NCBI RefSeq assembly: GCF_041146345.1
Contig: NW_027191409.1
Span: 1,178,001 to 1,242,000, forward strand
DNA from: Neodothiora populina
Taxonomy: Eukaryota
Length of the DNA stretch: 64,000 bases
Direction of reading: 5' to 3'
Shown here: in pieces, positions 1,203-6,577 of the stretch
Layout of the letters: each line of letters opens with the position of its first letter
Position numbering within the stretch: position 1 is the stretch's first letter
Made by a program: the position numbers and the translations under genes
The notes under the pieces: model-generated
The model's input: only the letters and a program-made list of their open reading frames with translations
Databases searched by the model: none
Told to the model about the DNA's origin: nothing

Positions 1203-1736
1203 ATGGCAGGCCGCATCAACATCCCGCTGGATGCGATTGCATCGCGTCTCAACCTGCAAGGGCGCTTCGATTCCGTGCGCTCTCAGAACATCCAGGGCCG
1301 CTTCGCCAACCTCAAGCCCGTGTCCGAGTTCTTCAACCTCAAGCAGTTGTCGAAGCCGCAGAACTTCGGTGAAGTGCAGAACAGAGTCAACTACAACCTC
1401 GGCTACTTCGCCAGCAACTATGCCGTCTTGTTCGTCATGCTGAGCATCTACACCCTGCTCACCAACTGGCTGCTGACCTTTGTCATTCTCCTCGTCATTG
1501 GTGGCATGTTCGCCATTGGTAAGCTGCAGGGTCGTGATCTCGACGTGGGCTTCTTCCGTGCCACCACTGCACAACTCTACACCGGACTCGTCGTCATCGC
1601 GGTCCCCCTGGCAATCATCGCAAACCCGTTCTCGGCTGCTCTCTGGCTCATCGGAGCTTCTGGAGTCACCATTCTGGGTCACGCTGCGTTTATGGAAAAG
1701 CCCATCGAGTCAGCTTTTTCCGAGGAGGCGGTCTAG
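1203..1736 (+). CDS. YIP3: PRA1-family prenylated Rab acceptor (Yip3), 177 aa
   Basis: ATG in GCAATGG context; motifs RVNYNLGYFASNY and LGHAAFMEKP; two long hydrophobic segments; ends SAFSEEAV-TAG; strong C-ending codon bias. Confidence 0.93.
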   Translation: MAGRINIPLDAIASRLNLQGRFDSVRSQNIQGRFANLKPVSEFFNLKQLSKPQNFGEVQNRVNYNLGYFASNYAVLFVMLSIYTLLTNWLLTFVILLVIGGMFAIGKLQGRDLDVGFFRATTAQLYTGLVVIAVPLAIIANPFSAALWLIGASGVTILGHAAFMEKPIESAFSEEAV

Positions 1737-1906
1737 ATGGTCGGCCGCGAGCTCCTTACTCCTCTCTGCCCCCATGGGGAAGACCATCCGGGGCTCCCGC
1801 AGGGCATGTCGGAAACAGTGGCAGCAGGGGATATGGAGAATGGGAGCCCCGTTCGAGCCAGCTACGACAGCTGGCTCTCGACGACCAAGATGACAGGCAC
1901 GAGCTG

Positions 1907-3136
1907 ATGTTCGGTCCCGCTGCCGGTCTGATGTCGAAACCTCTGTCCAGAGGTCAAGAAAGAGAAAGATTTACTGGTGATGAGCTGTATTTTACTGGCT
2001 ATGATTTGAACTGGGCAAGAGGCGACGAGAGATTGCCCGGGAATGCATCGTACGAGAGCGTTGGCTATGCGGAGGAATATCGATTCCAGGATGAGAAAGA
2101 AAGAGAGAACTACGAGCAGCAGCGTCAAGCCGCTTACCTTCGACAGGAGGACTTGTTGCAATCTGCCAATGAAAAAGTCCGAAGGGCCAGAGAGAAAGGC
2201 AAAGCGAACATTGTCCTGAGCCCTGAAGAAGTCGAGGCACTCCAGCGTGGTCAGACGCCACCCAGACGTGACCTCACGCCACCAAAGACCCCTTCCAAGA
2301 GCAGATCGAGCCGGTCCAGCAGTGCTACGAGTCCTGCAGGCAAGAAATCGAGCAAGAAGAGCTCCAACTCACGCCTTGCTAGCAACCCATCTCCGTCCGC
2401 ATCACGCACCAAAGGCACACCACGGTCATCGCGCAAGTCCTCGCTGGCTGGAGAGCAATCAAATGCTGCGCCCCCAGCTTTCACGATCGCAGGACCAGAT
2501 GGTGTGCCCATGTACGCACCGGGCTATTACTCGTCTTCCTCTCCCGAACTAGTCCGACCAGGATCCAGCCGATCTCGGGCAGGATCGAGGTCTGCTTCCT
2601 CGGGCAATCAACGCGACGTGACTCCGCCAGTATCAGAGCCGACATATGTAGCCTATCATCCAGGACGTCTCTATGGCGGTCCGCCAGGTTCAAGCGAGGA
2701 TAGTGGTGGTGGTGGGGGTCTGCGCCTGCCTCGCAATCGATCTGCATCAAATGCACAGTTCAGCTCCGAATTCTTCGGTACGCCGCCACTGCCAGCTGTG
2801 CAGAACCGACGCAACGTTTCAGGTCCGGCAGACGTTTCGTACTCGAGGGTGCCCCGTGTGCAAGCGCGTTCGCCTCTGGCACCCAGACAAGAGGCGGGGT
2901 CTTCGTTTTCTGCTCAGCAAGCATGGCCAGGACGCGGAGAGAGCAGAGCTGGCGCGGGTGATGCGGCTGGTAACTCGGGCGGCAGTAGCGGTCGAGGTAG
3001 TGTCAGCAGCGGCAGCGATGACGGCGAACAGGGGGTCCGCGTCGAAGTGCTGCCGGATCGACTGGGTGGTGGGTACACGATTGACAGACGACCTGTTGGC
3101 AGCGACGGATTGAAGCGGCGAAAGGGACGAAAGTGA
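1907..3136 (+). CDS. Hypothetical Ser/Gly/Arg-rich, largely disordered protein (409 aa from first ATG; frame open from 1538, overlapping YIP3)
   Basis: 409-codon ORF with a helical segment (EDLLQSANEKVRRAREKGKANIVLSPEEVEAL). The same frame has no stop between TGA at 1535-1537 and 3136. Confidence 0.75.
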   Translation: MFGPAAGLMSKPLSRGQERERFTGDELYFTGYDLNWARGDERLPGNASYESVGYAEEYRFQDEKERENYEQQRQAAYLRQEDLLQSANEKVRRAREKGKANIVLSPEEVEALQRGQTPPRRDLTPPKTPSKSRSSRSSSATSPAGKKSSKKSSNSRLASNPSPSASRTKGTPRSSRKSSLAGEQSNAAPPAFTIAGPDGVPMYAPGYYSSSSPELVRPGSSRSRAGSRSASSGNQRDVTPPVSEPTYVAYHPGRLYGGPPGSSEDSGGGGGLRLPRNRSASNAQFSSEFFGTPPLPAVQNRRNVSGPADVSYSRVPRVQARSPLAPRQEAGSSFSAQQAWPGRGESRAGAGDAAGNSGGSSGRGSVSSGSDDGEQGVRVEVLPDRLGGGYTIDRRPVGSDGLKRRKGRK

Positions 3137-3640: not shown

Positions 3641-4058
3641 TCACCCACCGAAGCCGAATAGGATCCTCAGCAGCTCGAAGATGAGACCGCCGCAGACGAC
3701 AAAGATGAGGAGGACTGTGGAAACGAGTGTTAGATTTCTTTCCTCTTCTTTTCTTCTCGCTCTCTGCGAGATTCATAGAGCGAGGCAAGACAGACAAAGG
3801 AGGATTTACTGACTGAGCCATATGCGCGAGACGGGGCTCTTCGCCGGCGTGGTCTGTTTCTTGGTCACGACCGCGGCGGGTTTGCCCATCTTGGACTCTT
3901 GCTTGCGGGCGAAAGCCTCGTTTGCACGGCGCTGTTGGGGGGTTTGGACCTTTGCGGAGGTTAGTCTTTTTTTTCTTGGATTCTCGAGTTGCAGGGAGGG
4001 GGGTCGCGCAAAACAAGGAGCAGAAGAAGAATGTCAGTAGCAGCATTGAACATACCAT
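3641..4058 (-). CDS. YSY6: RAMP4/SERP1/Ysy6 ribosome-associated ER membrane protein, about 71 aa, 3 exons (4058-4056, 3949-3814, 3714-3641)
   Basis: Spliced by hand: ATG|GTATGT..CTAAC..AAG and A|GTCAGT..CTAAC..CAG give MVQTPQQRRANEAFARKQESKMGKP...KSPVSRIWLILLIFVVCGGLIFELLRILFGFGG, a typical RAMP4 sequence with C-terminal TM helix. Absent from the ORF track. Confidence 0.9.
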
Positions 4059-4531
4059 TGTGGCGGCTGTGTGTGTGTATGAGGTGTTCGGTCGAGGGGT
4101 ATAGTAGAGCAAGGTAGATCGGAAAGGAAGGGTGATCGGCAGGTGGACTATTATGGTCGGGGACAGGTAACAACTATCCGGCTGGAAGTGAAAGGGACAG
4201 CGAGTAAGACAGTGTTCAGAGAGAGGGCGAGAGTTTCAGGAGTTGACTCAGACAATAATAGTAGATCAATAACCAATATCATTCCTTTGCTGACGGGACT
4301 TGTTGATTCAGCCGCTGCTACTGCCACATGTCATCAAGGTGGATGAGTGAGTCATGAAACACAGATCTGGACCTTTGTCGTGTGTCATGCGCGGACAGAT
4401 TGAGCTTCTCCACACACTCCCTCGAATAATACCAGGTAGACTGTATCTATATCCACATATTCTGATATACCTGTCACACTGTATAATAATCGACTGCTGG
4501 CCTGTGTGATTGACTGACTGAATGGGACACA

Positions 4532-6577
4532 ATGTTGGACGCCTTTGAAATCTTGACGACGTCTGGAGTGGTGCTCTGGTCCAAGTCATATGCGCCGGTG
4601 AGCAGCAATGTGGTGAACAGCCTGATCAGCGACGTCTTCATCGAGGATCGATTGTCCTCGCTCACAATCTCTTCGTCTTCGTCAGCAAGCAAAGAAGACA
4701 CACAATCAGCTCGCAATACTCCTTTCAAAAAGGACAAACACACGGTCAAATGGACCACGGCGAAAGACCTCGGCCTGATCTTTGTCGCCGTCTACCAGTC
4801 CATCCTGCACCTGCCTTTTGTCGACGACTTGCTCGACGTCACACGCGCTCTTTTCATAAAACAATACGGGAAGGAGCTAAAAATGGCAAGCGCGCCGAGT
4901 CGACTCGACTGTTCACCCTTCGCTCCCACCTTCGACGCCCTCGTCGCCAAACTCGACAAGACGTCCATCACCGCCGAATCTGTCTCGCGGTCAGATCACG
5001 ACTCGACATCTGCCGCTGAGTTGACGCCGCCCTCGAGTACTGCTGGCACCGAAGATGGCTTCGAAGAGCCGCCGCCTCCTCCTCCTCCCGTGCCAGCCTT
5101 GAAGAAAGCTGCGCCGAAACACCTGTACAACGACACCACCTCCACAGATGCCACTCCCGTCCCCACCCCGGACACTTCGAGACCCTCGTCTCCCGCAGTC
5201 AACCACATTCTCACCGGCAAAGCTGGTCCGCCCGCAAAGGCCACGAGAAGGTCTCGCAGACTCGCCGCGAAGAACGAGTCCGCTCCAGCTTCCTCAGGTG
5301 ATGAGTCGCCCGCGAGGAAGTCTACCGCAAAGAGACCCACCGCCAAGTCAAAGCGCACATGGGATGCCCATGGGTTCGGAGAGGACGACGGCGACACTGT
5401 GCTAGACTACTCGACCCACAGCCTCGAGGGAGACGTCGATTCATCACAGATCGAGGACGTGCGAACACAAGACATGGGCAGCCGAACGAACAAGGGCCAG
5501 TTCGTCCTCAAGGATCTAGACGATGAAGTTGACGCCATCCTCGCACAATCGAAATCTAAGCAGACACATTCAGCAGAAGCGGCATCCACGAGTGGCCTCG
5601 TGGGAACAGGCATCGGCGCCATCAGCGGCTATTTCAAGAACATTGTCGGTGGCAAAACATTGGCCAAAGAAGATCTCGTCAAGCCGCTCAAGGCCATGGA
5701 AGACCACTTGCTCAACAAGAACGTGGCGAGAGAAGCGGCGGTTCGACTATGCGAGAGTGTGGAGCGCGACTTGCTGGGCACCAAAACCACCTCCTTCACC
5801 ACCATTGACGCCACCATCCGCTCCTCCATGTCAAAAGCCTTGACCAAGATCCTGACTCCTACATCCTCGCTCGACCTTCTGCGCGCCATCACAACCACAA
5901 ACACCACCCGCCCTTACATCATCAGTATAGTCGGTGTGAACGGCGTGGGCAAGTCAACCTCTCTCTCCAAAATCGCCTTTTTCCTGCTCCAGAACAACTT
6001 TCGCGTGCTGGTGTGCGCAGCAGACACCTTCCGTTCCGGCGCTGTCGAGCAGCTCCGCGTTCACGTGCGCAACTTGTCCGAACTCGCCGCCCGCGAAAAC
6101 GTAGGCACGGTCGAGCTGTTCGAGCAGGGCTACGGCAAGGACGCAGCGACAGTGGCCCGGGACGCCGTCGCATACGCCAACACTCCATCCGCGGGCAAGC
6201 CAGCCTTTGACGTCGTCCTCATCGACACGGCAGGCCGTCGACACAACGACACCAGACTCATGTCCTCGCTGACCAAGTTCGGCCAGCTCGCCAACCCGGA
6301 CAAGATCTTCATGGTCGGCGAAGCCCTCGTCGGCACCGACTCGGTCGCCCAGGCGCGTAATTTTTCTGCTCAGTTCATGGATGCCAAGACCGGTCGTCCG
6401 AGGGGTCTGGACGGGTTTATCATCAGCAAATGCGATACCGTGGGCGATATGGTCGGTACTTTGGTGTCTATGGTTCACGCCACGGGTATCCCCGTCGTGT
6501 TCTTGGGCGTCGGTCAGCATTATGGTGATTTGAGGGGGTTGAACGTCGGATGGGCTGTTGACAAGCTTATGAAGTGA
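4532..6577 (+). CDS. SRP101: Signal recognition particle receptor alpha subunit (SRX domain plus NG GTPase), 681 aa
   Basis: N-terminal MLDAFEILTTSGVVLW; GTPase motifs GVNGVGKST, DTFRSGAVEQL, DTAGR, SKCD, GVGQHYGDL. Confidence 0.96.
   Translation: MLDAFEILTTSGVVLWSKSYAPVSSNVVNSLISDVFIEDRLSSLTISSSSSASKEDTQSARNTPFKKDKHTVKWTTAKDLGLIFVAVYQSILHLPFVDDLLDVTRALFIKQYGKELKMASAPSRLDCSPFAPTFDALVAKLDKTSITAESVSRSDHDSTSAAELTPPSSTAGTEDGFEEPPPPPPPVPALKKAAPKHLYNDTTSTDATPVPTPDTSRPSSPAVNHILTGKAGPPAKATRRSRRLAAKNESAPASSGDESPARKSTAKRPTAKSKRTWDAHGFGEDDGDTVLDYSTHSLEGDVDSSQIEDVRTQDMGSRTNKGQFVLKDLDDEVDAILAQSKSKQTHSAEAASTSGLVGTGIGAISGYFKNIVGGKTLAKEDLVKPLKAMEDHLLNKNVAREAAVRLCESVERDLLGTKTTSFTTIDATIRSSMSKALTKILTPTSSLDLLRAITTTNTTRPYIISIVGVNGVGKSTSLSKIAFFLLQNNFRVLVCAADTFRSGAVEQLRVHVRNLSELAARENVGTVELFEQGYGKDAATVARDAVAYANTPSAGKPAFDVVLIDTAGRRHNDTRLMSSLTKFGQLANPDKIFMVGEALVGTDSVAQARNFSAQFMDAKTGRPRGLDGFIISKCDTVGDMVGTLVSMVHATGIPVVFLGVGQHYGDLRGLNVGWAVDKLMK

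Follow-up and report, generated by a model that had tools for sequence, protein, structure and literature searches.

What becomes of the long open reading frame (ORF) that overlaps the 3' end of the fungal gene YIP3: is it part of YIP3, a second gene or an accident of sequence? We addressed this question at the YIP3 locus of Neodothiora populina, within a window of 64,000 nucleotides (nt; NCBI RefSeq assembly GCF_041146345.1, contig NW_027191409.1, positions 1,178,001 to 1,242,000). Coordinates below count from the first letter of this window, and features lie on its forward strand unless stated otherwise. An earlier inspection of the letters, hereafter the sequence-only reading, had proposed that YIP3 is connected to the overlapping −1 frame by a ribosomal frameshift, by an alternative splice or as a dicistronic messenger RNA (mRNA). 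We favor programmed −1 frameshifting, as described for Podospora anserina YIP3 (PaYIP3), with a probability of roughly 0.85. This mechanism is already published and reported to be conserved across Pezizomycotina (Malagnac et al., 2013, PLoS One 8:e73772, PMC3777964), and the window is another instance of it.

The short ORF (1203..1736) is an intronless zero-frame gene identified from the ORF list and Pfam. It encodes 177 amino acids and ends at TAG 1734-1736. The protein matches the PRA1 family (Pfam accession PF03208, E 1.7e-38, 142 of 143 profile positions covered), shares 58-85% identity with fungal PRA1/Yip3 proteins and has the C-terminus ...EKPIESAFSEEAV-TAG (...ESAFSEEAV-TAG). As the sequence-only reading had stated, the −1 frame contains no stop codon from 1538 to 3136, and thus overlaps 66 YIP3 codons, and its first ATG (1907..1909) lies 170 nt past the YIP3 stop. 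The corresponding frame opens 22 to 69 codons ahead of the stop in relatives. The segment of this frame upstream of the proposed shift site (1538..1720) is no longer than may be expected by chance and is most likely not translated. Downstream of the shift site, the 3' ORF (1721..3136) consists of 471 codons and TGA 3134-3136 and encodes a disordered Ser/Arg/Pro-rich tail, for which Pfam yielded no family. The computed long form, comprising YIP3 up to the shift site and the tail, is 644 amino acids. The 170-nt gap between the stop and the ATG, earlier described as GC-rich and protein-like, has a coding-like G+C content of 0.61-0.63, compared with 0.37-0.45 in flanking intergenic DNA.

The junction of the two frames contains a candidate shift site. 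A run of five T (1715-1719) inside GCT TTT TCC forms the heptamer U_UUU_UCC (1715..1721), which the zero frame reads through Phe codon 172 (1716-1718) and Ser codon 173 (1719-1721). This heptamer does not fit the canonical X_XXY_YYZ pattern. After a shift, A-site UCC would re-pair as UUC solely via a G-U pair at the middle position, in agreement with the published PaYIP3 account, which is used here from excerpts of its text (PMC3777964). A 2-nt spacer (GA, 1722..1723) separates the heptamer from a stem whose 5' arm (GGAGGCGGTC, 1724..1733) lies opposite a 3' arm (1743..1755) made of GGCCGC (1743-1748), a GAG bulge (1749-1751) and CTCC (1752-1755). All 10 pairs of this stem form in the window. 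The sequence-only reading had recognized it as a hairpin of GCGGTC (1728-33) and GGCCGC (1743-48), with the TAG in its loop and a possible extension by GGAG (1724-27) and CTCC (1752-55), and had placed it six nt past the slippery run. That distance holds for the core stem alone; with the extension the spacer shrinks to 2 nt, which falls outside the canonical range of 5-9 nt. The earlier description also missed a second stem. Its 5' arm, GATGGTC (1736..1742), begins with the G of TAG and lies within the stem 1 loop, and its 3' arm, GACCATC (1782..1788), lies inside the R-P-S codons of the −1 frame. With stem 2, the element is predicted to fold as an H-type pseudoknot rather than a plain hairpin. 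An Rfam search of 1600-1950 returned no family at E up to 1.

These features suggest the following mechanism. One mRNA would carry both the YIP3 ORF and the tail ORF, and most ribosomes would end at TAG 1734, releasing a 177-amino-acid Rab-GDI displacement factor. A minority, on meeting the pseudoknot 2 nt downstream, would slip back one base on U_UUU_UCC and read the −1 frame to 3136, producing a Yip3 of 644 amino acids with a long disordered tail.

The closest precedent for this arrangement is PaYIP3, whose long form is produced by programmed −1 frameshifting (PMC3777964). In the excerpts of that study, the P. anserina mRNA spans both ORFs, and 12 complementary DNAs (cDNAs) show neither splicing nor editing at the junction. 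The shift occurs at U UUU UCC, codon 170, followed after 2 nt by a pseudoknot whose stem 1 contains a conserved 3-nt bulge (PMC3777964; the spacing also in PMC5009743, where a passage of the review by Atkins et al., 2016 calls it unusual). A green fluorescent protein (GFP) fusion to the long ORF gave a product of ~88 kDa in vivo, the size of the whole fusion. Of the Pezizomycotina examined, only Ascosphaera apis and Arthrobotrys oligospora lacked the arrangement. Capnodiales and Ophiostomatales were described as carrying the tail in the +1 frame, and in Mycosphaerella graminicola UUUUU is replaced by UUUCU and the predicted structure was no more than a small stem-loop (PMC3777964).

The window resembles PaYIP3 in several respects. 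Both loci combine an orthologous YIP3/PRA1 5' ORF with a homologous, Pezizomycotina-specific 3' ORF in the −1 frame. The heptamer U_UUU_UCC precedes the stop by a few codons in each (codon 170 in P. anserina, 172 in the window). In both, a pseudoknot begins 2 nt downstream and contains a 3-nt bulge in stem 1, with compensatory changes among species. The organism differs, the closest named relatives of the window being Dothideomycetes. The frameshift proposed by the sequence-only reading, giving Yip3 and a fusion of ~640 amino acids, thus gains support from the PaYIP3 precedent, from the same cassette in the window and from the computed length of 644 amino acids.

We identified 32 related loci in one metagenome scan. 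In 25 of them, which are all that retain upstream DNA, tblastn places YIP3 directly upstream of the tail and on the same strand; the remaining 7 end at a contig edge, and several of these still include the last codons of YIP3. Relative to YIP3, the tail stands in the −1 frame in the window and 14 loci, and 17 loci have it in the +1 frame, a count that allows for introns and includes two loci read by eye (L013 and L026); one locus (L018) could not be placed. This split matches the published −1 majority and +1 Capnodiales. Ahead of the stop, 13 of the 14 −1-frame loci carry GCTTTTTC(C/A)GAG, the last one (L011) starting downstream of the site. The T5 run and its non-canonical heptamer, as given by the sequence-only reading, are present in the window and kept in these 13 loci as T5 followed by TC(C/A); the heptamer ends in UCA rather than UCC in Aureobasidium-like loci. 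The +1-frame loci, which resemble Capnodiales, carry TCTTTCTC-type (UUUCU-type) sequences.

Several observations indicate that the frame relation and the nucleotides at the junction are conserved. Within a clade, each of the 5 indels found between the stop and the conserved G-R-P codons has a length divisible by 3, which preserves the frame relation to YIP3. The stretch that joins the last codons of YIP3 to the first conserved codons of the tail is kept as nucleotides rather than as peptide; one group reads the motif GGTCGGCCGCG as G-R-P-R and the other as W-S-A-A. Similarly, loop 3 of the pseudoknot carries a TATG that hardly varies across the −1 and +1 groups but stands in different frames in the two; the window has TCTG at this place (1764-1768). 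In the −1 group this TATG supplies the conserved Met of MPPWGRP that ORF callers take as a start. A separate observation concerns an Aureobasidium-like contig, which has TAC in place of the YIP3 stop (TAA/TAG; L007:39-41), extending the zero frame by ~78 codons. Either a sequencing error or natural variation could account for this.

Base-pair covariation provides further evidence for the pseudoknot. We aligned 16 of the 33 sequences (15 distinct) after setting aside near-duplicates, the truncated L011, intron-bearing loci and L018. Of the 255 cells assigned to pairs, 95.7% are paired, compared with 92.2 ± 0.6% in shuffles, and 6 pairs are changed on both sides, compared with 2.2 ± 1.0; none of 500 shuffles was as high on either measure. 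When partners were slid by 1-3 columns as a control, 29.5-62.9% of cells were paired. The stem that the sequence-only reading had drawn around the TAG, with its GGAG/CTCC extension, forms 8-10 of 10 pairs in each of the 16 sequences, and stem 2 forms 6-7 of 7. Stem 2 occurs in the covarying forms GAUGGUC/GACCAUC, GGUGGUC/GACCACC and GGCGGUC/GACCGCC, and in one locus (L025) stem 1 is closed by A-U instead of C-G. Both stems can still form in the +1-frame loci examined, a difference from the published study, whose excerpts give only a small stem-loop for M. graminicola.

The tail is likewise conserved as protein. A search with the −1 frame from 1739 returned 42 homologous proteins, whose named sources are all Dothideomycetes except for one lichen fungus (Varicellaria). 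Many of these proteins start with MPPWGRP(P/S)GA, which aligns with window codons upstream of ATG 1907 (SLPPWGRPSGAP, CTG at 1766); the peptide between the stop and this ATG is therefore conserved coding sequence. The window contains 43 conserved in-frame codons upstream of ATG 1907. For this reason ATG 1907 is probably an internal Met and not a start. At the CTG (Leu, 1766..1768), 13 of the 14 −1-frame loci have ATG (M-P-P/H-W-G-R-P), as do many database homologues at the aligned codon.

Homology extends beyond the Dothideomycetes and includes gene models in which YIP3 and the tail are fused. Nine of the 42 tail homologues contain a PRA1 domain and are models of this kind. A Yip3 search for longer proteins identified 130 long PRA1 models in Sordariomycetes, Leotiomycetes, Eurotiomycetes, Lecanoromycetes and Dothideomycetes. 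The tail family profile matches the tail of the fused Botrytis cinerea model (hhalign probability 99.9%, E 1.2e-31). The tail also matches that of a Podospora appendiculata model (BLASTP E 5e-7), in a central conserved block only and at low identity.

A number of points weigh against frameshifting, or limit how far it can be claimed here. Taken singly, the features of the window are not beyond chance. A 66-codon −1 overlap arises in 15% of YIP3 codon shuffles and in 31% of synonymous resamplings, and 20% of dinucleotide shuffles likewise leave the 57 codons from the stop to the ATG free of stops. For 1712-1800 the fold energy is an ordinary −32 kcal/mol, compared with −34.2 ± 3.8 in shuffles (z +0.58). 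The significance of the cassette comes from comparison with relatives and from the literature, and not from the window alone. The structure used in the covariation analysis was derived from the same sequences, so it is favored in the slid control. The excerpts of the P. anserina study report a modest effect: −1 shifting in a yeast reporter was ~1%, compared with 0.3% for an out-of-frame control, and the published pseudoknot stimulated a canonical slippery site poorly (PMC3777964). We infer that stem 2 of the window is the published PaYIP3 stem 2. The anatomy of the locus, its conservation, the base-pair covariation and the homology of the tail are observed here; shifting and the long form in N. 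populina would be carried over by inference from the orthologue. Finally, relatives have a conserved in-frame ATG 26 nt past the stop, from which the tail could be initiated separately in those species.

The +1-frame relatives bear on how the element might work. Their loci contain spliceosomal introns at three positions within 15 nt of the YIP3 stop. In ten loci (L019, L021, L023, L026, L028-L032), the intron directly follows TAG. These introns are 49-56 nt long in the nine measured, start with GTGAGT (GTCAGT in L026), contain a CTAAC or ACTGAC branch site and end in YAG or AAG. Three loci (L022, L024 and L027) have the appearance of a precise intron-less form of this type. The other two introns lie between the Ala and Val codons, with a GCAAGT donor (L013:2923-2982), and inside a Glu codon (L015:1592-1653). 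Such introns would tie the end of YIP3 and the tail to one transcript. The after-stop intron lies between the two stems' 5' arms, and in these loci the pseudoknot can therefore form only after splicing.

A further reading concerns the pseudoknot, which may do more than stimulate −1 shifting. The same two covarying stems persist in relatives with a +1-frame tail and a T-run interrupted to UUUCU. The pseudoknot could thus be a recoding element that is neutral as to direction, at which ribosomes pause or a trans-acting factor binds. It might be combined with the conserved loop 3 Met, which would let the tail also be made alone. We consider this a tentative and rather unlikely proposal.

We consider it improbable that the tail is a separate cistron, translated from CUG 1766 or AUG 1907 by reinitiation on a dicistronic mRNA or from an internal promoter. 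The possibility draws on the ATG that stands 26 nt past the stop in 13 of the 14 −1-frame loci, and on the many Dothideomycetes proteins, together with one from Varicellaria, that begin with MPPWGRP or MGRPPG. Sequences without the ATG have CTG (the window), GTG (L016, P0027) or ACG (L013 and the L019 group) in its place, all of them among the better near-cognate start codons. One locus has GAG at this position (L015), however, and many of the start calls come from ORF-style callers that take the first ATG. TATG is kept in both clades in different frames, which indicates that the letters and not a start codon are conserved. Nor would a separate cistron require indels in multiples of 3 or a frame relation to YIP3 that is fixed by clade. 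The window has no AUG before 1907, although 43 conserved codons lie upstream, and where reinitiation after termination would place a restart AUG, close to the YIP3 stop, it has CTG (1766). The second protein suggested by the sequence-only reading thus fares poorly, its first AUG lying well inside conserved coding sequence. In P. anserina, the excerpts state that the GFP product ran at the size of the whole fusion (PMC3777964). Dicistronic translation with reinitiation had been entertained as the principal interpretation, prompted by the conserved ATG, the −1 and +1 frames of the two clades and the reading of GGTCGGCCGCG in different frames. It was dropped on three grounds: the −1/+1 split was already described for a proven frameshift, the indels are multiples of 3 and the window lacks the ATG.

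An alternative splice from YIP3 to the tail, using the donor GTCAGC (1709) with an acceptor at CCAG (1950) or AAG (1782), appears very improbable. Both pairs join the frames arithmetically, which for 1709..1950 is the part of the sequence-only proposal that stands. That intron is found in only 1 of the 10 distinct −1-frame loci compared, and it would remove ~80 codons whose protein sequence is conserved. All 10 loci have the 1709/1782 pair, and the models of a Phaeosphaeria sp. and of Venturia inaequalis that join ...KPIE|PSG... correspond to it. Its donor is nevertheless weak (C at +3), its acceptor is AAG and its ends lie in YIP3 codons and in stem 2, which are conserved for other reasons. 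Two frame-joining GT..AG pairs are common to all 10 loci, 1709..1782 and 1731..1846. Their splice signals are poor: the donors are GTCAGC and GTCTAG and their acceptors AAG and GAG, the second preceded by a purine-rich tract, and here too the ends fall in conserved codons. The donor GT is missing in 3 of the 4 +1-clade loci compared, and in P. anserina the 12 cDNAs in the published excerpts are unspliced at the junction (PMC3777964).

Public gene models do not agree on a junction either. We inspected 15 of the long PRA1 models: 10 join after the Ala of ...EEA, taking the GT of the last Val codon as donor, 2 join ...KPIE|PSG (the Phaeosphaeria sp. and V. inaequalis models) and the remaining junctions differ. 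Three different junctions occur within Aureobasidium pullulans, one of which would need a 14-nt 'intron' in window coordinates. Mutually inconsistent introns of this kind are typical of predictors patching over a frameshift.

That two unrelated neighbors overlap by chance, with the open −1 frame upstream of 1907 meaningless, is compatible with the single-sequence statistics and is scarcely credible given adjacency in 25 of 25 loci with upstream DNA, long PRA1 models in at least five Pezizomycotina classes, the conserved −1 peptide upstream of 1907, a covarying pseudoknot and, in some +1-frame loci, an intron joining the last codons or the stop of YIP3 to a tail exon; synteny and covariation exclude chance adjacency. 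Three further mechanisms were considered on paper and rejected: the frames do not fit stop-codon readthrough or HAC1-like unconventional splicing, and a hop from GUC to a second GUC, 9 nt further along, would not leave the zero frame.

Programmed −1 frameshifting at YIP3 can also be compared with better-known recoding systems. Signals of viruses and retroelements, such as infectious bronchitis virus (IBV) 1a/1b and mammalian Edr/PEG10 and Ma3, likewise consist of a slippery run followed by an H-type pseudoknot. They differ in having an X_XXY_YYZ heptamer and a spacer of 5-9 nt, whereas YIP3 is without retroelement ancestry and shifts at ~1% in yeast. The Edr pseudoknot also has a 3-nt bulge according to the excerpts of the P. 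anserina study (PMC3777964). A further comparison is with antizyme-type recoding, in which a +1 shift takes place at a stop codon that has a pseudoknot on its 3' side. The likeness lies in a structure beside the zero-frame stop and in extension by a change of frame, and it is relevant to the +1-frame relatives. The window differs in that it needs a −1 shift and in that the proposed site is 4 codons before the stop; we know of no polyamine link for the YIP3 site.

Some additional features of the window surround the cassette. In the zero frame past TAG (1737-1907), a stretch of 56 codons begins with ATG and ends with a TGA that overlaps ATG 1907 (cTGATGt). The ATG directly after the stop is not conserved: L009 has ACG there, whereas L012 and the +1 group have GTG. 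The stretch is probably a chance occurrence. Downstream, a neighbor on the reverse strand (3809-4033) is a RAMP4/Ysy6-like exon (Pfam accession PF06624, E 7.6e-7), and one on the forward strand (4514-6577) encodes the alpha subunit of the signal recognition particle (SRP) receptor (Pfam accessions PF04086, E 2.4e-70, and PF00448, E 1.7e-43). Both neighbors belong to the secretory pathway, as does YIP3.

The public models of YIP3 across Pezizomycotina contain a systematic annotation error. Among the database proteins (P0014, P0019-P0023, P0043 and others), models are fused across the frameshift site by invented introns, and other records annotate the tail alone as 'Prenylated Rab acceptor 1'. 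ORF callers begin the tail at an internal Met. The window adds no new kind of system, and its value is one of annotation. What novelty remains is modest and lies outside the window, in the behavior of the pseudoknot in +1-frame lineages; that the pseudoknot is kept after a switch to +1 bears on how the element works. Programmed −1 frameshifting in a cellular gene without retroelement origin is very rare, and YIP3 is the published example. Under programmed −1 frameshifting, the correct model for this locus would be one gene with two products, of 177 and 644 amino acids, rather than two genes or a spliced fusion.

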